Shown: positions 50,028 through 60,830, counted from the first letter of the stretch. The stretch: 63,723 nt of DNA from Acidobacteriota bacterium (GCA_016191015.1 JACPPM010000238.1:1-63723), one strand, 5' to 3'. A program made the numbers and translations. The notes: generated by a model not told the origin, from the sequence alone.

Positions 50028-50627
50028 ATGAACCTGGAAGAATATCCGATCACGCTCACGCTCAAGGACGGATTGCACGTCACGATCAGGCCGATGACCG
50101 CCTCCGACGGGCCGGCATTGCTGGAGTTTTTCCGCAGCCTGCCTGAGGAGGACCGGCAGTTCCTCCGCGAGGACGTCACGCAGCAGGAGGTCGTCGCCAG
50201 GTTCGTCGCGAACTTGGACTACGATACCGTGCTGCCGCTTCTCGCCATCAACGAAGGCAAGATTGTCGGGGATGCGACGCTGCACCGGACACACCGGGGA
50301 TGGTCGTCTCACGTGGGAGAAATCCGCGTCGTTGTCGCGCGAGCCTTCCAGCGCAACGGTCTCGGCACGACCCTCGCCAAGTACCTCGTCCGCCATGCCA
50401 TCTCCGTCGGGCTCGACAAGATGGTCGGCGAAGTCATCGACAACCAGGTCGGCGCGCGGCGTGCCTTCGAGCGGCTCGGGTTCCATCCCGAAGCCGTGCT
50501 GAAGGGGCATGTCAAGGACATCCACGGCATGAAGCGCGACCTGGTCATCCTGGCCAACGACGTCAGCCATATCTGGGAGAAGATGGAAGCGATGGTCGCG
50601 GACTTCTCGCCGACGTTCGGCGGGTAG
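50028..50627 (+). CDS. GNAT-family N-acetyltransferase
   Basis: LKDG..V.IRP...D, FQRNGLGT motif A, FERLGF. Confidence 0.9.
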   Translation: MNLEEYPITLTLKDGLHVTIRPMTASDGPALLEFFRSLPEEDRQFLREDVTQQEVVARFVANLDYDTVLPLLAINEGKIVGDATLHRTHRGWSSHVGEIRVVVARAFQRNGLGTTLAKYLVRHAISVGLDKMVGEVIDNQVGARRAFERLGFHPEAVLKGHVKDIHGMKRDLVILANDVSHIWEKMEAMVADFSPTFGG

Positions 50628-50629: not shown

Positions 50630-50691
50630 CGGGCAACGCAGCCTGCGGAATTCCAATAGCCCGACCTTCGGTATCGCTCGGCTGGGCGTGT

Positions 50692-51074
50692 GATGCCGGG
50701 TCGAGCTGAAGTCACGCGAGGTCGATCTCTTCTCGATAGAGGCGCCATCTCTCAGCACATTCGCGTGCGTCGATGCTCGCGCAAGGAGCCCATTCTCGAG
50801 CTCGTCGGGCTAGATGAGCTTGTATGGAATGACCACAAACGACCACTTCTGAGGCGGAAAGTCCTTCGAGTTGCGCGTGACGAGACGGAGGCCGTTCATC
50901 TGAGCAAGGGCAGCCTGGAAGGCGTCGGGCAGCCTCCAACGAGTCTCGCGACGTAGACGGGCGGCGAGGTCAGCGACCGTCTTGTCGATCACGCGCGCCG
51001 TCTCCGCCATCGTGTCTGTCCCATGAGTAATCACGATCCGCTCCTCGTCCGCCTGCCGGCAGTTCTCCAGGATG
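50692..51074 (-). pseudogene. Mosaic relic: asparaginase fragment + PIN 3' end + STAND-gene 3' end
   Basis: 50986-51074 matches 59823-59911; 50819-50990 matches 56071-56242; 50692-50817 matches 52324-52449. Confidence 0.85.
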
Positions 51075-51110: not shown

Positions 51111-51935
51111 TCATGATGGGAGGGTGCGGCGGCGCAGTTTCTTGAGAGGTTCATAGCCCTGAGCAATTCGCATGCGGTTGATTGCTTCAGCGGTAGCTTC
51201 GTAGTGTTCGACTTCAGACTGCGGTGCCTTGTTCCACATGTCCTGCAGGCAATGCCAGGCCCTTGCCCCTCTTGTGGTTGGCAGATGCCAGTAGTCAACT
51301 TCGTTCATAACACCAGCCTTGTTTGCCCGTTCCTTTTCAGAGCATTCGAGATGACGAATCGCAGGAGATTTCCCATCTGGAGAAACGGGGTTGTGGCTGG
51401 GATCATTTAGTAAGGAGACCACCGACGGATGTAACAAGATTCGAAGTCCTTTAATCCCGCACGTTTCGGCGGCATGAGCGCGCACGACAGCGGTCCCCAG
51501 AAATTCGGTAGCGTGATTCCCGCCATCAAGGCTGACCTCAGAGCTAAATCTGAGTGCAGCAAACGATCCATATGCGATCCCCATTCGTATTGGGATCTGT
51601 TGCGTAAGCATGGAATGCATTAAATCCACGCCGATGTTAGCTGCATCAGAGAACTGCGTCGTGGCAATAAAAGCGGAATCAGAGAAGGTGATGGCTGTCA
51701 GCGGGTGCCGCGTGCTCGCCAAATTGAGCCCCATCTTCAAGGAGTAATGGAAGCCTGAAAAGGTCTGGGACAATTGGTTTCGGGAAGCCGCCATGAACTT
51801 GTCGATCGACTCCAGCGTGAACGAAGGAAGCCTTTCAGGCGCCTTAAGATACTCCAGGTCAATCGGATTGGACTCTGTTAGAGCTTTGAACCCTAGTATA
51901 TCGACGAACAAAACGACCTCATTTTCCGACCTCAT
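51111..51935 (-). CDS. Class III nucleotide cyclase-like protein
   Basis: VLFVDILGF, FSDSAF, IRMGIAYG, GTAVVRAH..E pattern; more AT-rich codons than the backbone. Confidence 0.65.
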   Translation of the reverse strand: MRSENEVVLFVDILGFKALTESNPIDLEYLKAPERLPSFTLESIDKFMAASRNQLSQTFSGFHYSLKMGLNLASTRHPLTAITFSDSAFIATTQFSDAANIGVDLMHSMLTQQIPIRMGIAYGSFAALRFSSEVSLDGGNHATEFLGTAVVRAHAAETCGIKGLRILLHPSVVSLLNDPSHNPVSPDGKSPAIRHLECSEKERANKAGVMNEVDYWHLPTTRGARAWHCLQDMWNKAPQSEVEHYEATAEAINRMRIAQGYEPLKKLRRRTLPS

Positions 51936-52351
51936 CGCATCCCCATCAAGGGCTCGGGACCGCGTCTTGACATCTCATTTGGTCGAGAGGCTTGTGTGGG
52001 ATCGCCGAGGTCTGCGGGCAAACGGCGGAGTTCGAGGCCCAGGGCTCGGTCATGTAATGCGTCCGACTCAATGATATTGCACGCCATGGTAACCGCCGAT
52101 GGACTTCGTCCGAGCAGCCTGGCAATCTCCACTGATCTCAGACCCGAATACAAACGCATCGCATAGCGAAGCGGCCGGGCTTGCCTGCGCTCGGGCATTC
52201 CCGGGAAACTCTTCTCCACTGCTACCTGTACTTCTGCAAGGTTTGTCCGTCTCATGCGATCCATAGGGACCGACGTCTCGTCAACTCGAGATGAAAAGTC
52301 AGGACGCGGTCCGCAGCTCACGCGATGCCGAGTCCTGCGGAGGTCACTCAA
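51932..52351 (-). CDS. Small HTH protein or remnant (DnaA-C-like HTH)
   Basis: SGLRSVEIARLLGRSPSAVTMA HTH; overlaps both neighbours. Confidence 0.4.
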   Translation of the reverse strand: MSDLRRTRHRVSCGPRPDFSSRVDETSVPMDRMRRTNLAEVQVAVEKSFPGMPERRQARPLRYAMRLYSGLRSVEIARLLGRSPSAVTMACNIIESDALHDRALGLELRRLPADLGDPTQASRPNEMSRRGPEPLMGMR

Positions 52352-55300
52352 GGTCGATCTCTTCTTGATAGAGGCGCCACCTCTCAGCAGATTCGCGTGC
52401 GTCGTGGGTCGCGCGTAGAGCCCATTCTCGAACTCGTCGAAGAGGATGACTCAGGAATCTCTTGGCGGATTCCTCGGCCTCGCGGTAGCGACCGGCGATG
52501 TCGCCGGCCAGTCCACCGACGTACCATGAGCCCGCGCAGAACTCATCAAATACGCTTTCATCGTCTTCGAACTCCGTCAGAACAAACTCCGTGAGGGGTG
52601 GTACGAACATCTGACCATCAGGTGTGGAACGAGGTGCAGGGAGGAATCGAGCGATCTTCTGTGCACCCCGACGGCCATTGGACCGAAGCCAGTTCATGGT
52701 GTTCTCGTGAGGTATCGCCGAGAACAGCGAGCGTCCGTGCGTGATATCGAGACGCCTACCATGTCTTGAGCTCAGGAGTAGGCGACCGACTTCCCGCATG
52801 ACTTCATCCGGATTAGCTCTCGCCAGTACGACTGAAACCTTTTCCGCGTCGTCGGACAGCGCATATTCTCCTTCAAAGAGACCTTTGACGGCCGCGCGAA
52901 TGGTCCGGGTGGGCTCGGCCCCCATCAACTCCTTGAGCACCACCAGCCAGTGAAGGCACTCCTCCGCCGTGACGAATCCGCCCGCCTCAATTAGTTTCCA
53001 GATCAGGATTCGCGTTTGCCTGTGGGCCACCACTGGTGCCTCCCCGCTTCGCTTCTTCTGCTCGATCCGGGCCGTGAGCGATTCCAAGGCAAGTTGGCGA
53101 GCAAGCTCATCCTTCCCCTTCGTCGCAGCATCTACCAATCGGCCGAACAGCTCACGAAACTCGCGATCGCCAATTGAATGGCCGATCCAGCCCCGCAGAA
53201 GATTTCCCAAATGAATTGGCGTCAGCAGGCCCTTGTCGTAGAGTCGTAGAGCACGAGACACTGGACTTGCCGCGTCGCCGATGCCAATCGACAAATCGAA
53301 AGCCGCGCGGGGGGCCACGACTTCCATCTCGTCCAGTCCCGCGGACAATCGACCGGTCAGATGCGGCCGCGAATCCATCAGTCCCATTACGTAGCCTTTG
53401 GCGAATTCGATGCGGGAGTGATGCCTGGTAGCCTCCAGGACCACGTCGAGGAATCGGGCATCTTCGTCGAGCTCGCCCAACTCTCGACCAAAAGTCTCGG
53501 CGCTTCGGGCCTGATCCGAAAAGAGCCATTCCACATCATTGAGGAGCGATGTCGGGGATTGCTGATACTTGGTTGCGAGCGCTCTGATCTCTGCCAACCA
53601 AGACTCCTCACCGGCCGAAGTGGAGTCACGATGGGAGGCCTTTCCCACGAGCACCCGAAGTCGGCCGTGGAGGTCCCGCGGAATCAACGAATCGATCCAT
53701 TGTCTGACCTGTAGAACATATGCCTCCGCCTGTTCCGGCTTTTCAGAATCCCTGTCAACGTCGTACTGCACGAATTCCTCTCCAACCTCGAGCAGGCTCG
53801 CCCGCAATTCGTCGGAGATGTTTCTTGCTTCGAACATTGCAACCACATCGTCGAGATATCCAGCGCGCAGCAAGTGTCTCAGCCTCGAGATCACGATTCG
53901 ATGCGACCCCGTAACAAGGAGGCTGTCTTCACCATGGCTGAGTTCTCGAAGCAACTGTACGGCTTGTTCCAGGCACTCGCGTTCCTCCGAAAGCGTAGAC
54001 GGCCTCCAGTCTGGCGGTGGGATCGTACCAGCCACGAGAGTCGGCGATGGGTGCCCCACCGCGAGTTCCTCGAAAATCCCATCCAGAGCATCTAGCGCAA
54101 GAGATACAACCTCTCTCCGCTCGGAGAGGAGCCTAACCTTGAGGGGCTCCATCCTCCTCCGAAATGGAGTCGGTGTGCCTGAAAGGTGGATTCTGAAAAG
54201 CTCCGTCCAGATTCTCCTCGCGTTATTCGCGATATTCGGCTCAGTCTCCTCAACTGCCAGCTCGAGCAGAACGGATTCCACTTCATCGAACATTTCCTGC
54301 AGATGACCGAGATCCTGCAGGAGCCAGACGAGCTTGCGCCGCGGATTTCTCCCGTTCTCGGCTTGCGAGAGAAGATTCAGCGTCCCTTCCCGCGAAGCTT
54401 TGTGCACGAGGTTTCGCAGAATGGACAGATAAGGCTTGGGATCGATCCGTGCGAGAGCGATTATTCGATCTGTTGTTGCTGTGTCTGCCAAACTCTGAGG
54501 TTGAAGTGTCGTAGCCCATTGGAGGAAGTAAGACGATACCGAACCGCGCACCTCTGGGCTGGCATCCCTTTGCACCCTATCGAGGAAGGATGGCAGAAGG
54601 CGCGGGGGTATCCGCATGAGGAAGGCGGCAGGATCATATTCGGCGCGGGTCTTCCACGCCGAGGCAAGAAGCGCGCGAGCGGCCACGGCAGGGGCCACTC
54701 GGAAGTATCGACCGACTTTTCTCACGACACCACCGTTGCTCTCCAGCCGGTTGGCCATCTCAATCAGCTCGTCCTTGTCCATTCCGACCCAATAGGACAG
54801 AAGGACTATTTCCTCCTGAGCCGGGCCTTTGAATGCGACCTTCATCTGCAGGGACAAAGCCTCCGCAACTTTCGACTCCTGCTGTGTGAGGCGGACTGCA
54901 AGATAATCAGGAACAGATGACGGAACCGCCCCTTTGCCCGAGGCCACGGTCGTCTGCCGATCGTTCGCGCACATATCGGCCGCAAAGCGGATGTTGTCGC
55001 CGGCCAGTTTCAGATAGGCCAACCTGCGTTCAGCAGGAACGCCCGGGAAGTTCCGATCGAGTATGTCCGTGATGACTTGCGATGGGAGAGGATCAATCCA
55101 GATGGCGTCATCGGGGCAGGCCTGTCTGGACGCGCTATCGACAAGGATTGCCCTGATCCTGTGCTCGTGTCCCTGAATCAACTGGGCCGCCGCCACACGG
55201 GTCTCGGTATCGCAATCATCAACCACAAGAATGGCGGTGACGGACTGATCCACGAGCAGCGTTCTTGCCACTCTGCCGACGTCTTCGGAATCGACATAAA

Positions 55301-56057
55301 GGACCGTGCCATCAGCACCGGGGATTTTAGACAGGCACTCGCAGAGAAAGCGTCTCTTTCCTGACCCACTCGCGCCCCTCAGGACCAAGATACTGTGTTT
55401 GCAGGACACCGAGAACGCAATGTGATTCATAATCGCCGTCTCGACTTCCATCCGTGCCTGAACGTCGATGTAGAGAGGCGTATTCCCAATCACGGACTTC
55501 GCCCGTATCCGAAGTGGGAGGGCGGCGCCGGCCAATTCCGGCCGGAAGAACTCTACTACCAAGGAAGGGAATCGAGAGGCCCACGCCGCCAGGTCGTCGG
55601 CGCTGACGACGAGTGGATCGGGCGCGGCTGGATTCAGTTTTCTCGCCTCGATGCGTAGAAGAGCCTCCCAATTGGCTTTCTTTGGCGCTGCAATGGAGTC
55701 GCACACACAGAGACGATACGCGCCTCCTTGCAGAAGATTGGACTTGACGAAGGGGTTCTGCAGTTCCCTCAAGAGCTGTGCTTTACGGACGTCGACTGCA
55801 GCCCGTGCTTTGTATTGCCAGACGCTCGGCACCCCGAACCGCCCGGTAGGATCATTCGGAATGGGGGCCTTGACCAGAGTGTCGACTCCTCCGTCGGGCT
55901 GGTTCGTTTGGATATTGGTGTGAACAAAAGCGTCTGGGAGTCCTCCAGCGAACGCTTGCGACCGAATGAGGGAATCGACAAATTTGGTGAACTTGTCGCC
56001 ACCAGGCGAACGGGTGTGGTTGATCACATCCCGAGCGTCTACGCTCCACAAACTCAT
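52344..56057 (-). CDS. Large protein: N-terminal restriction-endonuclease-like domain + STAND-like NTPase + helical repeats
   Basis: PDGGVD...WQYK nuclease-like motif; GASGSGKR Walker A; ILVVDD Walker B; long helical C-terminus. Confidence 0.7.
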   Translation of the reverse strand: MSLWSVDARDVINHTRSPGGDKFTKFVDSLIRSQAFAGGLPDAFVHTNIQTNQPDGGVDTLVKAPIPNDPTGRFGVPSVWQYKARAAVDVRKAQLLRELQNPFVKSNLLQGGAYRLCVCDSIAAPKKANWEALLRIEARKLNPAAPDPLVVSADDLAAWASRFPSLVVEFFRPELAGAALPLRIRAKSVIGNTPLYIDVQARMEVETAIMNHIAFSVSCKHSILVLRGASGSGKRRFLCECLSKIPGADGTVLYVDSEDVGRVARTLLVDQSVTAILVVDDCDTETRVAAAQLIQGHEHRIRAILVDSASRQACPDDAIWIDPLPSQVITDILDRNFPGVPAERRLAYLKLAGDNIRFAADMCANDRQTTVASGKGAVPSSVPDYLAVRLTQQESKVAEALSLQMKVAFKGPAQEEIVLLSYWVGMDKDELIEMANRLESNGGVVRKVGRYFRVAPAVAARALLASAWKTRAEYDPAAFLMRIPPRLLPSFLDRVQRDASPEVRGSVSSYFLQWATTLQPQSLADTATTDRIIALARIDPKPYLSILRNLVHKASREGTLNLLSQAENGRNPRRKLVWLLQDLGHLQEMFDEVESVLLELAVEETEPNIANNARRIWTELFRIHLSGTPTPFRRRMEPLKVRLLSERREVVSLALDALDGIFEELAVGHPSPTLVAGTIPPPDWRPSTLSEERECLEQAVQLLRELSHGEDSLLVTGSHRIVISRLRHLLRAGYLDDVVAMFEARNISDELRASLLEVGEEFVQYDVDRDSEKPEQAEAYVLQVRQWIDSLIPRDLHGRLRVLVGKASHRDSTSAGEESWLAEIRALATKYQQSPTSLLNDVEWLFSDQARSAETFGRELGELDEDARFLDVVLEATRHHSRIEFAKGYVMGLMDSRPHLTGRLSAGLDEMEVVAPRAAFDLSIGIGDAASPVSRALRLYDKGLLTPIHLGNLLRGWIGHSIGDREFRELFGRLVDAATKGKDELARQLALESLTARIEQKKRSGEAPVVAHRQTRILIWKLIEAGGFVTAEECLHWLVVLKELMGAEPTRTIRAAVKGLFEGEYALSDDAEKVSVVLARANPDEVMREVGRLLLSSRHGRRLDITHGRSLFSAIPHENTMNWLRSNGRRGAQKIARFLPAPRSTPDGQMFVPPLTEFVLTEFEDDESVFDEFCAGSWYVGGLAGDIAGRYREAEESAKRFLSHPLRRVREWALRATHDARESAERWRLYQEEIDLE

Positions 56058-56061
56058 TGGG

Positions 56062-56448
56062 CTATTTGACCTTGTACGGAATGAGCACGAACGGCCATTT
56101 CTGAGGCGGAAAGTCCTTCGAGTTGCGCGTGACGAGACGGAGGCCGTTCATCTGAGCAAGGGCAGCCTGGAAGGCGTCGGGCAGCCTCCAACGAGTCTCG
56201 CGACGTAGACGGGCGGCGAGGTCAGCAACCGTTTTGTCGATCGGGAGCGTCGGAAAGCAATCCAGGAGTCGCCGGGCCGCTGTTGAGCCTAGCGCGTCGA
56301 ACCCTGAGAGGACCTCCGCGCGTGTGATAACGGAGATTACCGCATCATTGTGAGTGCGCGCCAAGTACTGCGTGGCTTGTGGGACGTCGTTGAAATGATC
56401 GATGAGGATGACTGAGTCCAAGAGGAACTTCACCGACGCCCCTGCCAT
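56062..56448 (-). CDS. vapC: PIN-domain (VapC-like) toxin
   Basis: LLDSVILID, ITRAEVL, LPDAFQAA, LVTRNSKDF. Confidence 0.9.
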   Translation of the reverse strand: MAGASVKFLLDSVILIDHFNDVPQATQYLARTHNDAVISVITRAEVLSGFDALGSTAARRLLDCFPTLPIDKTVADLAARLRRETRWRLPDAFQAALAQMNGLRLVTRNSKDFPPQKWPFVLIPYKVK

Positions 56449-56672
56449 TCCCGTCGACGCATACGCTGGTAGTCGAGACCGTCTCCCTTGCGCCAGATGC
56501 CACTAGTTTGGCGGAGGATTTCTTTGAAATCTGGAGATTCGGCACTCCACTCACGCCTGAGCCGGCGCACGGCATCCCGCACAATCTGCGTCATGGGAAC
56601 GTCTCGTTCCTTGGCCATCCGGTCCAGCCACTCCTTGTCTTGTGGGTCGAGGCTCACAATTGTTCGCGTCAT
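56430..56672 (-). CDS. Ribbon-helix-helix (CopG-like) antitoxin
   Basis: MTRTIVSL...WLD..A....MTQIVRDAV; overlaps the PIN gene; GATATCA repeats at 56694-56720 upstream. Confidence 0.85.
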   Translation of the reverse strand: MTRTIVSLDPQDKEWLDRMAKERDVPMTQIVRDAVRRLRREWSAESPDFKEILRQTSGIWRKGDGLDYQRMRRREWQGRR

Positions 56673-56861
56673 CCTTCGGGCGTCCTCCTCAACGATATCA
56701 ACCTCATCATAATGATATCATGAAGAGGCCTGAACCGGAACGGTGGGGCGGGACCGTGGAATCGTATCTCTATTCACTCTACGACTACGAGCGGTGACTT
56801 GCGCGCTCTGACGACACGTTGGCAAAGAACAGGCCGCTCGGCGGCCTAGCCGAGCGGCTCG

Positions 56862-57192: not shown

Positions 57193-57693
57193 TTACAGCC
57201 ACCCGCCAATGACCAGGATAGCAATGGCGATCAGGGCCAGTGTGATCACCCAAAGCAGTACATGAGGAATCCAAGAGATACCAGCGAAGGCGGAGTGTAG
57301 CACCCTCCTGAATCTGCTATTCGGCGATCCTAGCGCGTGTGCGTATATGTGGGCGAAGACGGCCGTCAAACATAAGAGAGCGAGAATCCTGAATATCGGA
57401 TCAATCTGGACTCTGATACTGAGGGCAGGCCAACCAACGAAGATGTTGAAGACCGCGGTTGCACAGTGGAAAGCGATGCGTCGGAGGGCCGTCATGGGAA
57501 GCCATCCACATCCCTGTCCAACGGAGCGTGAGCCGATTTCAAAGATGATGACCGCGATGGCCCAAGCAAACAGAGGCAATGCGCAAGGGGGACCGCTGGC
57601 ATACCTTCCAAATGCCTCGGATGCAAGCAACATCGCAAAGTTCGAAAGAAACCAAGCAAGGTATGGACAAAAGTGCATCGTTGCCATCCTCAC
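57193..57693 (-). CDS. Multi-TM protein, candidate RHS immunity protein
   Basis: Starts 8 nt after the RHS stop; hydrophobic. Confidence 0.55.
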   Translation of the reverse strand: MRMATMHFCPYLAWFLSNFAMLLASEAFGRYASGPPCALPLFAWAIAVIIFEIGSRSVGQGCGWLPMTALRRIAFHCATAVFNIFVGWPALSIRVQIDPIFRILALLCLTAVFAHIYAHALGSPNSRFRRVLHSAFAGISWIPHVLLWVITLALIAIAILVIGGWL

Positions 57694-57701
57694 GCAACGG
57701 C

Positions 57702-59027
57702 TTAGAGAGGAGACCAGTCAGAATCGGTGAACGGGGCTAGTCGGCATCCACCGAGGCAGTTGTCGACAGCAATCGGCGGTGTGTCTGGTTCATTGCAGCA
57801 CTTGTCTTTCGGCACCAGCTTCACGAACGCATGCGGGATGATACGTCGTTTCGTGAAAGTACTGCTCACGGATGGCCAGCCAGCGTAGATGACCTCCGGG
57901 TCCCAGCACTTCAATTGCCCGTTCAGCGCATCTACAAGGCCGCTAGCATTGTACTCGCATCCATATCCAGCGCCCTTGAATAGATCTCCGCTGCACGCCT
58001 GAGCACTGAAGGTCCTGCCCCTGGTCCTCTCGCAAATGGAGAGGGCCACGAAAAGCTCTCTCGTCCTATCAAGAGCCGTGCAGCAAAGGCCGAAGGGATC
58101 CAGAGAATCAGCCGGACTGTTCCGAACGTATCGGTAATGATTGACATCAGACTTGAAATCCAAGGGATCCTCCGCCGTGAACCGCCCGCTGTGCGGGTCA
58201 TAGTATCTCGCGCGATAGAAATACGTGCCAGTCTCCGGATCCCACTCGCGCGATGTGTATCGGTAGGCGTCATTCCAGCCTGTGCTCGACGACGGTAGTA
58301 ACTGGCCGAAGGAGTCGTAGTTGAACGTGGCGACGATGTTGAAAGCGGCGGTGTTGTCGTCGCGGATGTGGCGGATGGTTCCGAGGCCGTCGGCCAGGTA
58401 GTAGTACAGCCGGCTGTCGGCGCCGGCGGTGGCGATCGGTTCGTCGATTCCGGGGCCGTGGGCGTAGGTGCGTTGGACTTGCCCGTCGGGGGCGAGCTCG
58501 GCCCAGATGTCTTCGCCGTGGTAGATGTAGCGCGTGAGAAGGCCGTTGACACTCTTGGCGATCCGGCGCCCGAGGGCGTCGTAGTAGTAGTCGGCCGAGG
58601 TCAACAGGTTACTACCGATGTCGTACTTCCGGTAGGCTGTCATCCGATTCTCGCTATTGAAGACGTACTCATGGCGCTCGCCATTCACCTTGCTGATCTT
58701 GCCTGTGCAGTTTCCGTCGGCGTCGTAGCTGTACGTGAATTCCGCGTCATCGAGAAGCTGGTTGGCTGCGTTGTAAACGTAGCTGGAAGACAGATGTGAG
58801 CTGAGGCGGTTACCCACCGGGTCGTAGGTGAAGCTTTCCGAGGGGTCGAGCGGGTGGGTCGCGCTCACCACCTGGTACTTGTCGTCATACCCGTAGGCGT
58901 GGCGTCCCTGGTCATCATCCATCGCGACCCGATTTCCCGCTGCGTCGTACTCATACGCGTACCGCCGCTGCACGAATCCCCCCGCATCCCGGTGAGCAAG
59001 CTCGAGTAGCTCGCCCGCGAGGTCGTA
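57702..59027 (-). pseudogene. 5'-truncated (orphan) RHS/YD-repeat toxin with C-terminal toxin domain
   Basis: YD repeats, YYRARYYDP..GRF...DP, DPFGL autocleavage motif; truncated by the GNAT duplicate (internal ATG at 58922). Confidence 0.85.
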
Positions 59028-59425
59028 CTGCCGCTTCTCGCCATCAATGAAGGCAAGATTGTCGGGGACGCGACGCTGCACCGGACACACCGGGGATGGT
59101 CGTCTCACGTGAGAGAAATCCGCGTGGTTGTCGCGCGAGCCTTCCAGCGCAACGGACTCGGCACGACCCTCGCCAAGTACCTCGTCCGCCATGCCATCTC
59201 CGTCGGGCTGGACGAGATGGTCGGCGAAGTCATCGACAACCAGGTCGGCGCGCGCCGCGCATTCGAGCGGCTCGGGTTCCATCCCGAAGCCGTGCTGAAG
59301 GGACATGTCAAGGACATCCACGGCATGAAGCGCGACCTGGTCATCCTGGCCAACGACGTCAGCCACATCTGGGAGAAGATGGAAGCGATGGTCGCGGACT
59401 TCTCGCCGACATTCGGGGGGTAGCC
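59028..59425 (+). pseudogene. Second copy of the GNAT 3' end (right direct repeat)
   Basis: About 14 substitutions against 50232-50629 by manual alignment; lacks the 5' third of the gene. Confidence 0.9.
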
Positions 59426-59457
59426 GGCCAGCACCGCTCGGTGCCCTATTCCGCAAT

Positions 59458-59546
59458 ACCACCAGGTCACCAAGGCACCAAGAAACCACCAAGGGGCTTC
59501 TTCTCCCACCTCTTGGTGCGGCTTGGTGTCCTGGAGTCTTGGTGGT
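59458..59546. repeat. Palindromic element with ~8-nt periodic (CACCAAG)n/(CTTGGTG)n arms
   Basis: Inverted arms with ACCAC...GTGGT termini. Confidence 0.75.
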
Positions 59547-59610: not shown

Positions 59611-60099
59611 CTAACGAACCCGCTCGAAGATTCCCTCCGACTTGTTCTTGCGCACGTTGTCCCATCGGAAGTAGCAGGCGTTCATGGCGATGTAGGCGCC
59701 ATGGGGCAGAATCTGTGCGAATGACAGGGCGCTCCCCAGATTGAACAGCCCATCCGAGCTGCCGAAGGCGTAGGGCACCATCGCTCCCGTGAGGACGATT
59801 GTCTTTGCAAGGTTCGCCTCGCCGATCAGGCGGACGGTCTCCGCCATGGTGTCGGTGCCATGAGTGATTACTATCCGGTCCTCCTCTGCCTGCCGGCAGT
59901 TTTCCAGGATGAGGTGGCGGTCGGCGTCACTCATTTCCAGGCTGTCGACCATCATCAGCGTCCTGACCTTCACCTGATGCCGGCACCGTCCGAGACGCAA
60001 CATCTCGTGGACATGGGTATCCTTGAAGTATAGCCGTCCGCCGATCTCGTCGTACTCCTTGTCGAACGTTCCGCCCGTGATGAAAAGCCTGATCAGCAT
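59611..60099 (-). CDS. Short asparaginase-domain protein
   Basis: ITGGTFDK, THGTDTM, LTGAM.P, SDGLFNLG. Confidence 0.9.
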   Translation of the reverse strand: MLIRLFITGGTFDKEYDEIGGRLYFKDTHVHEMLRLGRCRHQVKVRTLMMVDSLEMSDADRHLILENCRQAEEDRIVITHGTDTMAETVRLIGEANLAKTIVLTGAMVPYAFGSSDGLFNLGSALSFAQILPHGAYIAMNACYFRWDNVRKNKSEGIFERVR

Positions 60100-60275: not shown

Positions 60276-60830
60276 ATGATGTCCACCGTCACGCGGCCAC
60301 GCGCGACGATCGCCGATTACGAACGGCTCCCCGAGGGCGCGCCTTATCAACTGATCGATGGGGAGCTCATCATGACGCCATCGCCGGCTCCGTTTCACCA
60401 GATCGTTTCGGCCCGTCTTGAATTCGCATTGATGGGATTCGTGATCGAACGAGGCCTCGGGACCGTGCTCGATGCCCCGATCGACATCGTCCTCTCGGAG
60501 GGCGATGTCTATCAACCCGACATTATTTTCATCCGCAGCGAGCGTCGCGCGATCATCGGCGAGAAGAACATCCAGGGGGCGCCAGATCTTGTCGTTGAAA
60601 TCCTGTCCCCGTCGACGGCCTACTATGATCTGCGGACGAAAAGGGATATCTACGAGAAGGCGGGCGTTCAGGAGTACTGGGTCGTGGATCCGATGGGGCG
60701 CCAGGTCGAGGTGTTCGCGAATCGCGACGGGCTCTTTTCTCTCGCGGGGCAGTGCCGCGGTGAAGGCCGCATCGAATCGCAGATATTGCCCGGATTCTCG
60801 GTGGATATCGCAAGCCTGTTCCAGCAGTGA
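60276..60830 (+). CDS. Uma2-family endonuclease
   Basis: LIDGEL...P...HQ, QPDI, PDLVVEILSPST, K..Y...GV.EYWVVDP. Confidence 0.92.
   Translation: MMSTVTRPRATIADYERLPEGAPYQLIDGELIMTPSPAPFHQIVSARLEFALMGFVIERGLGTVLDAPIDIVLSEGDVYQPDIIFIRSERRAIIGEKNIQGAPDLVVEILSPSTAYYDLRTKRDIYEKAGVQEYWVVDPMGRQVEVFANRDGLFSLAGQCRGEGRIESQILPGFSVDIASLFQQ

Follow-up and report, generated by a model that had tools for sequence, protein, structure and literature searches.

The stretch of DNA considered here (the window) comprises 63,723 nt from an Acidobacteriota bacterium (GCA_016191015.1 JACPPM010000238.1:1-63723), and within it we studied a compact locus at 51111-56672 in which five minus-strand open reading frames (ORFs) follow one another almost without spacing. 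From 5' to 3' they encode a ribbon-helix-helix (RHH) antitoxin, a PIN-domain toxin, a 1237-aa STAND nucleoside triphosphatase (NTPase) that appears to be of the Avs type, a small helix-turn-helix (HTH) protein and a 274-aa protein with a predicted class III cyclase fold (Table 1). The initial annotation of this DNA had proposed that these genes may form a single undescribed anti-phage system. ORF calls recover all five genes where that annotation had placed them. Our analysis leads us to the view that they are probably independent modules, each mobile, that form a tightly packed mosaic within a variable island, and not one co-evolved system.

Table 1. Features of the locus (window coordinates), and defence-related genes beside homologues of the cyclase-fold gene in other genomes (locus handles L003 to L023)
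Feature	Coordinates or locus	Strand	Details and basis
RHH (CopG/VapB-like) antitoxin gene	56430-56672	-	80-aa ORF; Pfam RHH_1
PIN-domain (VapC-like) toxin gene	56062-56448	-	128-aa ORF; Pfam PIN
Avs-type STAND NTPase gene	52344-56057	-	1237 aa; PADLOC PD-Lambda-4_A and HMMER relatives
Putative PD-(D/E)xK (Mrr/restriction-endonuclease-like) effector domain	55533-56057	-	residues about 1-175; structure model and invariant residues
P-loop NTPase core	54798-55460	-	residues about 200-420, limits approximate; Walker A G228-K234, Walker B D280
Small HTH ORF	51932-52351	-	139 aa with the TTG start, 110 aa with the ATG at 52264; paralogues
Orphan class III cyclase-fold gene	51111-51935	-	274 aa; fold comparison, 386 homologues
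Terminator-like hairpin	56833-56858	-	upstream of RHH gene; 10-bp stem with 9 G-C pairs, T-rich tail
AT-rich stretch containing TGATATC twice, 20 nt apart	56694-56723	-	just upstream of RHH start; read directly
Remnant (scar) of a second PIN-STAND-HTH junction set fused to an asparaginase-like fragment	50675-51074	-	repeats
LmuB-like SMC ATPases, directly upstream of cyclase-fold gene	L012:926-3067; L016:4890-7943; L004:5499-7871
LmuB-like SMC ATPases, downstream of cyclase-fold gene	L011:3627-6674; L021:8942-10981
Type III restriction enzymes (REase_III), directly upstream of cyclase-fold gene	L006; L019
Type IIG enzyme	L008
DrmD and KwaA	L004
HmaA	L005
PDC-S06	L003
PDC-S02	L006
ThsA-like SIR2	L014
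Viperin-like radical SAM protein	L023
Weak PDC-S07 match	L018

Reading the DNA directly confirms three of the four junctions: the RHH and PIN genes overlap by 19 nt, the PIN stop codon TAG is followed by the 4 nt CCCA and then by the ATG of the STAND gene, and the stop of the 139-aa ORF and the start of the cyclase-fold gene share ATGA. The remaining one, described as an 8-nt overlap between the STAND gene and the HTH ORF, holds only with a start at TTG 52351; the public gene call for the HTH ORF begins at Met30 (110 aa) and leaves a gap of about 79 nt behind the STAND gene. Because the spacing is so tight, the five genes are probably co-transcribed here, in an arrangement that appears to be local. 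The likely 5' limit of the transcription unit is marked by the hairpin upstream of the RHH gene, which is a pattern match only, since the region holds five terminator-like sites against a mean of 5.2 in shuffled sequences. Transcription probably starts between this hairpin and the RHH start, where both TGATATC copies lie, and the AT-rich stretch that contains them is a candidate promoter or operator; a promoter scan gave no match at this stretch, and the TGATATC pair has no statistical support. A single groundwater study provides, in four of its runs, public contigs with the same arrangement, and one of these contigs (4728 nt) covers 51401-56128, from inside the 274-aa gene to the 3' part of the PIN gene; two of the four runs may underlie the assembly itself, so that the contigs are weak as independent support. 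The five-gene combination is real but local.

The largest gene of the locus belongs to a recognizable class of defence proteins. The best and only PADLOC family match of the 1237-aa protein is PD-Lambda-4_A (E 4.1e-22), with residues 38-664 aligned to positions 34-684 of the 1283 in the model. The N-terminal nuclease motif, P-loop and Walker B motif that the initial annotation had picked out are real: D55, G57, D59, Q81 and K83 are invariant in 25/25 N-terminal sequences of the family, and G228, G233, K234, D280 and R302 in all 41 full-length sequences. Pfam nSTAND_NTPase5 matches residues 201-298 at E 1.4e-4, below its cut-off, and AAA_16 matches eight of the ten close relatives scanned. For the N-terminal region, a structure model of residues 1-200 (pLDDT 88.2) gave no Foldseek match at E<=1e-3 (best E 0.02). 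The top rows of a VIA-align comparison, at Z 8.2-8.8, were all PD-(D/E)xK nucleases, values near 8 lying in the middling range by the tool's own warning; they include the type ISP enzyme LlaBIII, FokI, Can2/Card1 and the N-terminus of Avs4 (8dgf_A residues 1-177 against model residues 3-175; Z 8.4, root-mean-square deviation (rmsd) 3.5, 139 residues aligned). It is the invariance of the D...D...QxK residues that makes the nuclease assignment convincing. Behind the NTPase core lies a C-terminal region of about 800 aa that is colinear in relatives and matches no repeat family in a Pfam scan, and that we presume to be the sensor. The protein thus appears to carry every Avs architectural feature that we checked, namely an NTPase core and an N-terminal effector domain, and the earlier comparison of its layout to effector-NTPase-sensor proteins of the Avs/NLR-like type is upheld by the PADLOC match and the nuclease fold.

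PD-lambda-4 has been renamed Avs8, and its component Avs8A, which joins an Mrr nuclease to a STAND NTPase, recognises major capsid proteins of the HK97 fold (10.1101/2025.07.02.662641; 10.64898/2026.01.04.697583); Avs8A is reported to protect alone, with Avs8B dispensable (10.1101/2025.07.02.662641). The protein described here has the same order of restriction-endonuclease-like nuclease, P-loop NTPase and long C-terminal region as Avs8A and is similar in size to the PD-Lambda-4_A model through which we compared them. However, the alignment to that model leaves the C-terminal (sensor) half unmatched, and no gene for PD-Lambda-4_B (Avs8B) is present, the four neighbouring proteins matching no PADLOC model at E<=0.1. 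Agreement with a named system is therefore partial: it extends over the nuclease and NTPase half and stops short of the sensor and of the B gene, and the protein does not appear to be a full member of Avs8. Avs4 (AVAST type 4, 8dgf) offers a second comparison, with an N-terminal nuclease that superposes on ours and the same succession of effector, STAND and sensor. In contrast to this likeness in structure, the STAND family profile has no significant sequence-level match to solved structures (best E 0.037 against the PDB), and neither the sensor of Avs4 nor its target, the portal, can be assumed for the protein described here. Altogether, we regard the 1237-aa protein as a sensor-nuclease of the Avs type that forms a single-gene system and is distantly related to Avs8A/PD-lambda-4A.

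A word-indexed homologue search found just one distant relative of this protein and could have left the impression of an orphan. That label was rejected because an exhaustive HMMER search (query residues 1-1200) brought the count to 1837 cluster representatives at E<=1e-3, 455 of them at E<=1e-30, with relatives colinear over about 1230 residues at 27-38% identity. All ten of the closest relatives scanned also match PD-Lambda-4_A (best E 2.7e-35), and scans of viral contigs contained no relative of the family. The family is thus large and is covered only in part by current PADLOC models, and RefSeq labels one of its members "hypothetical protein". A 2026 survey delineates 589 STAND clades and 684 structural clusters of sensors and reports the cloning of representatives of 30 further sensor clusters besides Avs7 (10.64898/2026.01.04.697583); the present family is probably catalogued there but uncharacterised. 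The architecture of the protein can be read from it directly, and its activation we infer by analogy with Avs8, Avs4 and Avs7: the C-terminal region would bind a phage protein, NTP-dependent oligomerisation would bring the N-terminal PD-(D/E)xK domains together, and the assembled nuclease domains would cut DNA and abort infection.

The 274-aa protein at the end of the locus has 386 homologues at E<=0.001 (53-70% identity to the query among the 120 matches listed), and it matches no family in Pfam (including PF00211, E<=0.1), NCBIfam or PADLOC (E<=0.1). A structural model (pLDDT 70.6) yielded 134 Foldseek matches at E<=1e-3, all of them cyclases among the matches listed at the top, and superposes on the cyclase homology domain of Rv1900c (1ybt) with Z 16.7 and rmsd 3.4 over 158 of 167 residues. 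The best 25 rows of the VIA-align comparison are of class III cyclase type, including three Pycsar cyclases and one cyclase-like ATP-binding protein, and GGDEF domains come next. The metal-binding aspartates D12 (F-x-D-x-x-G-F) and D86 (F-S-D-S) are invariant in 42/42 sequences, as are many other positions, and D12 aligns with the first aspartate of Rv1625c-type cyclases. The class III cyclase-like protein of the initial annotation is thus confirmed at the level of the modelled fold, with both metal aspartates kept.

Comparison with canonical class III cyclases (1ybt, the mammalian adenylyl cyclase 1cs4 and Cya2, 2w01) shows how far the likeness extends. The fold is shared over residues 1-218 (Z 15-16.7), the two aspartates are present, and the predicted dimer is symmetric, its interface composite. 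This homodimer scored 0.74 against 0.02 for the best of three controls, a mark that 20 of 30 proteins known as pairs from solved structures attain, as does 1 of 23 solved as single chains, with at least 82% of contacts common to the runs and a partner pLDDT of at least 81; since cyclase dimers have already been solved, the pass may reflect only memory or likeness. In the dimer model residues 78-86 of one copy touch residues 137-148 of the other, and the D86 segment lies against the invariant D137-H141 of the partner. The profile of the family reaches PDB cyclases at just E 0.17-1.9, and the 274-aa protein lacks a sensor domain and continues at its C-terminus into a conserved helical addition of about 60-90 aa. 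Class III cyclases are expected to carry a base-reading Lys/Asp and a transition-state Asn/Arg, and these canonical residues are not evident in alignments to solved cyclases. A homodimer of this kind, acting on its own, would use two metal ions on a nucleotide held in a non-canonical pocket.

Pycsar systems consist of a class III-type cyclase, PycC, and a PycTM or PycTIR effector with a cyclic-nucleotide-binding domain. The protein described here shares its fold with 7r65 (Z 14.2), 8jsz (Z 13.4) and 8jsf (Z 12.3), and its gene, like those of Pycsar, lies in defence islands. However, canonical cyclases score above PycC, and the PADLOC models, which include no match to the 274-aa protein, Pfam and NCBIfam reveal no cyclic-nucleotide-binding domain in the STAND protein or the window neighbours. 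Nor is there a cyclic-nucleotide-binding effector among 50 neighbour ORFs scanned at 23 of 24 loci with a homologue of the cyclase-fold gene, and no partner gene is conserved across these 24 loci. By the features checked, the gene therefore does not appear to be Pycsar. In PHROGs the protein weakly matches an unnamed family (phrog_23933, E 6.4e-5); scans of viral contigs and of a plasmid collection contained no relative, and literature searches, which were not exhaustive, returned no paper that treats this cyclase-fold family or the joining of Avs, VapBC and a cyclase.

The 24 genome loci just mentioned come from many phyla, with homologues at 47-68% identity; 21 have at least 1.2 kb of upstream DNA and 14 have 8 kb. 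The distribution of the family over these phyla is patchy, at high identity. PADLOC matches lie beside the gene in 13 of the 24 loci, among the same 50 neighbour ORFs, and they belong to different systems (Table 1). At other loci the neighbours are metabolic (an aminotransferase, an FAD hydroxylase, a PEP mutase, an aldo-keto reductase). The cyclase-like copy itself is broken or partial in four cases (L020, L021, L023 and L024). Taken together, these loci suggest a conserved family whose genes are mobile, stand alone and often settle at the 3' ends of defence operons. We also note that an LmuB-like gene adjoins the cyclase-fold gene in five of the 24 loci, three of them in the order unknown gene, LmuB-like gene, cyclase-like gene; these sets could be a variant of Lamassu/ABC-3C with the cyclase-fold protein as a component.

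Whether the five genes belong together was examined from both ends of the locus. At the 24 cyclase-homologue loci, tblastn (E<=1e-3) found no relative of the STAND, HTH, PIN or RHH proteins (0/24), and the STAND family profile found none at E<=1 (0/24). For the STAND gene we assembled 35 homologue loci, 29 from metagenome contigs and six from a set of 400 further genomes within the phylum, in which the gene occurs sporadically (6/400); 28 have at least 650 bp of DNA upstream and 15 at least 1250 bp downstream. None of the 35 contains a relative of the RHH, PIN, HTH or cyclase-fold proteins (tblastn, E<=1e-2), and the cyclase profile likewise found nothing in any of them. Clustering of the neighbours of STAND loci gave no common family, save in three loci of one genomic context (L043-L045). 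Pfam was run on 149 neighbour ORFs from 33 of the loci, leaving out L044 and L045, which share the context of L043, and four short ORFs. The neighbours were housekeeping genes, mobile-element genes (transposases, integrases, a resolvase, conjugation genes), scattered and unrelated toxin-antitoxin parts (MazE, RelE, PemK, another PIN) and a few defence genes (Mrr_cat, an NB-ARC-TPR protein, a CAP12/Pycsar-type TIR). One cyanobacterial plasmid carries a full-length homologue (34.6% identity), annotated as a hypothetical protein, whose gene stands by itself with type I restriction-modification and integrase genes around it. STAND homologues are single-gene units, as Avs genes are. A shared occurrence of cyclase-like and STAND genes, on which the idea of one system had been staked beforehand, was never found by tblastn or profile hidden Markov model in the 24 and 35 loci, and because the two never co-occur there the proposal of an undescribed five-gene system, with a cyclase signalling to a STAND sensor, fails this test and is not supported.

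The first two genes are of a familiar kind. RHH_1 matches the 80-aa protein at E 5.2e-6 (26.6 bits against a cut-off of 20.5) and PIN matches the 128-aa protein at E 5.1e-12 (46.9 bits against 23.6), and because both lie above their Pfam thresholds the pair appears to be an ordinary type II toxin-antitoxin module of the VapBC type, as the initial annotation had it. The likeness to VapBC extends to gene order, the antitoxin gene preceding and overlapping the toxin gene; the difference is that NCBIfam VapC (equivalog) models match the PIN protein below their cut-offs, and the pair stands out only by its position, 4 nt ahead of a large defence gene. In PHROGs the PIN protein matches an unnamed family (phrog_13721, E 7.3e-8). 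VapBC antitoxins repress their own promoters, and on this basis the RHH antitoxin, perhaps as an RHH-PIN complex, may repress the promoter just upstream of it and possibly the downstream genes as well. Regulators of the CapK/CapS type lie upstream of immune operons (PMC13373217), and we considered a similar role for RHH-PIN as dedicated regulator of the STAND gene. This was rejected, and the effect of the pair kept only as a putative local one on the promoter, because no STAND-homologue locus has a related pair.

For the HTH ORF, Pfam offers only Sigma70_r4_2 at E 0.015, below threshold, so that the HTH call of the initial annotation is weak by this measure; it gains support from paralogues. 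The ORF has six weaker paralogous matches in its own genome, and in one of these it is 39% identical over 62 aa (E 1e-8) to residues 234-295 of a 311-aa protein that carries Pfam Y1_Tnp (E 3e-10; IS200-like). A word-based search detected no homologue elsewhere, and a language-model look-up returned small DnaA_C-like proteins (score 0.91), which is a lead only. We read the ORF as a putative solo copy, or remnant, of the HTH module that proteins of an IS200-like transposase family carry at their C-terminus, and it probably marks a mobile-element junction. Members of this HTH-module family in the genome lie at L072:820-1752 (the 311-aa protein), L071:1513-1731, L074:182-403, L075, L076 and L073; some of these copies stand alone as ORFs of 73-74 aa, and one copy is interrupted by stop codons. 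Because the module is multi-copy in the genome, its distribution suggests that the IS200-like (Y1_Tnp) element family is active, or was recently active, in this bacterium.

The surroundings of the locus record further rearrangement. The GC fraction is 0.53-0.59 across 51-58 kb and 0.60-0.66 in the flanks, and this dip, with duplicated flank fragments, bears out the variable island that had been suspected. Just downstream of the cyclase-fold gene lies a scar made of three repeats: 50801-51000 matches 56053-56252 at 92% (the PIN part), 50675-50807 matches 52307-52439 at 81%, and 50978-51074 matches 59815-59911 at 82% (asparaginase-like). In order, the scar consists of an asparaginase-like fragment in frame with about the last 60 PIN codons, then about the last 35 STAND codons and some 45 nt of the HTH start, and it has no cyclase part. 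Within it, 50718-50822 encodes a match to STAND residues 1202-1236 (69%, E 3.2e-7). A diverged PIN-STAND-HTH set thus appears to have been present once and to have lost nearly the whole of its STAND gene. On the other side of the island, at 59.0-60.1 kb, lie a second, partial GNAT gene (96%) and a full asparaginase-like gene, and the scar together with these duplicated GNAT and asparaginase-like flanks indicates that the locus went through several recombination events. Of 20 relatives, 7 carry the asparaginase-like gene of the flank. In two genomes of the same family no other ORF of the 38-63.7 kb part of the window lies within 10 kb on either side of it, and for this reason the borders of the island cannot be set by synteny.

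Other details of the flanks can be set beside these. The duplicated GNAT acetyltransferase segments are 50228-50527 and 59024-59323 (96%), and the region runs from GNAT through the scar, the asparaginase fragment and the island to the partial GNAT and asparaginase genes. Such a pattern is expected if a segment with diverged copies of both flanks entered by homologous recombination. At the junction between PIN and asparaginase about 23 nt are common to both parents.

Several observations weigh against reading the locus as a mosaic. The genes are packed with overlaps or a 4-nt gap, which gives them the look of an operon, and a scan of the region found no terminator-like site between the five. 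In just 15 of the 35 STAND loci does the downstream DNA extend far enough for an HTH and a cyclase gene to be seen, and the closest STAND relatives found are 35-38% identical, so that no close relative of this locus is among those examined. The PIN-STAND-HTH part is not a one-off, because two diverged copies (81-92% nucleotide identity) keep its junctions; the order appears to be older than the present copy, and the cyclase gene is not included in it. Finally, the cyclase-like gene lies directly behind a co-oriented gene that ends within 200 bp of it in 10 of its 24 loci, and could on that account be a promiscuous partner and not fully autonomous. A rival reading would make the five genes one integrated, lineage-specific system, in which a cyclase signal controls, or is controlled by, the STAND nuclease and VapBC serves as regulator or back-up effector; every part has a defence-related fold, and the coupling is tight and partly echoed in the scar. 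We nevertheless consider such a system highly unlikely: none of the 24 and 35 related loci shows any pairing, Pfam, PADLOC and NCBIfam scans of the STAND protein and its neighbours revealed no domain for cyclic-nucleotide binding, Avs8A is reported to work alone (10.1101/2025.07.02.662641), an IS200-family HTH paralogue lies between the STAND and cyclase genes, and the cyclase gene is missing from the remnant.

The last of the points just gathered leads to another explanation, in which the cyclase-like gene is an accessory that plugs in behind many sensors (Lamassu-type SMC ATPases, type III restriction enzymes, the STAND gene of this locus) and needs the upstream system to be present, being neither autonomous nor specific to STAND. 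It is last in order at this locus too, and the LmuB-like ATPases adjacent in five loci and the REase_III genes directly upstream in two fit the same pattern. Its identity, however, stays at 47-68% across partners that have nothing in common, and hence there is no sign of co-evolution between cyclase and partner; elsewhere, moreover, its nearest genes are of housekeeping types. We think this explanation improbable, though it deserves to be kept in mind. A more deflationary account would make the cyclase-like gene an ordinary signalling or metabolic enzyme, or an inactive pseudo-cyclase, with no role in defence and carried in the island only through mobility. The failure of PF00211 and of every PADLOC model to match it, the canonical residues not evident in alignments, the class III cyclase-like ATP-binding protein (6yii, Z 12.3) in the list of similar folds and the broken copies in four loci would all suit such an account, to which we give hardly any credence given that defence-model matches lie beside the gene in 13 loci, that the family is patchy over many phyla at high identity, and that both metal aspartates and many other positions are invariant. 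We therefore favor the model in which independent modules have been brought together in the island. Tight packing of genes in a defence island can mimic an operon-encoded system, and it is comparative context that separates the modules.

The mosaic model leaves room for a bolder proposal, which we put forward tentatively and with real doubt. The orphan cyclase-fold family could be a self-contained enzyme, not described before, that serves immunity directly or as an accessory. It would be a homodimeric nucleotidyl transferase of class III type, its substrate pocket re-modelled, that is encoded by the last gene of unrelated defence operons (Lamassu-like, type III restriction-modification, Avs), and its new nucleotide product would signal infection or counter interference by the phage. 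Independently of this, the STAND protein would stand for an Avs family whose sensor and phage trigger are unlike those of Avs8. If the cyclase-fold family does make a nucleotide product, it would be a new enzyme in bacterial nucleotide-based immunity.

A few neighbouring features complete the description of the region. An orphan RHS C-terminal piece at 57702-59492 (minus strand) contains YD repeats, an RHS-associated core (TIGR03696, E 8.5e-20) and an unassigned C-terminal tip of about 125 aa, and matches an unnamed PHROGs family (phrog_10385, E 2.1e-12). No full-length rhs gene adjoins it, and the first 150 or so codons of the listed RHS ORF are probably not real because they are antisense to the partial GNAT gene. 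It is followed by a 166-aa ORF with hydrophobic stretches (57193-57693, minus strand) that could be an immunity gene. A 184-aa ORF at 60276-60830 (plus strand) adjoins the asparaginase-like gene and lies inside a longer antisense ORF. Among the STAND-homologue loci, L043 encodes a 1139-aa protein (L043:6489-9905) with zinc ribbons, Guanylate_cyc (PF00211, E 7e-20), AAA_16 and TPR repeats, about 2 kb downstream of the STAND homologue and beyond a DDE transposase; it does not match the profile of the orphan cyclase-fold family and is unrelated to it. At L051 a full-length asparaginase gene is found about 1.6 kb away from a STAND homologue (35% identity), and a Fic-domain gene separates the two (L051:11294-12295 and L051:10219-10869, both on the minus strand), an echo of the flank in the window that may reflect chance or a shared insertion hotspot.

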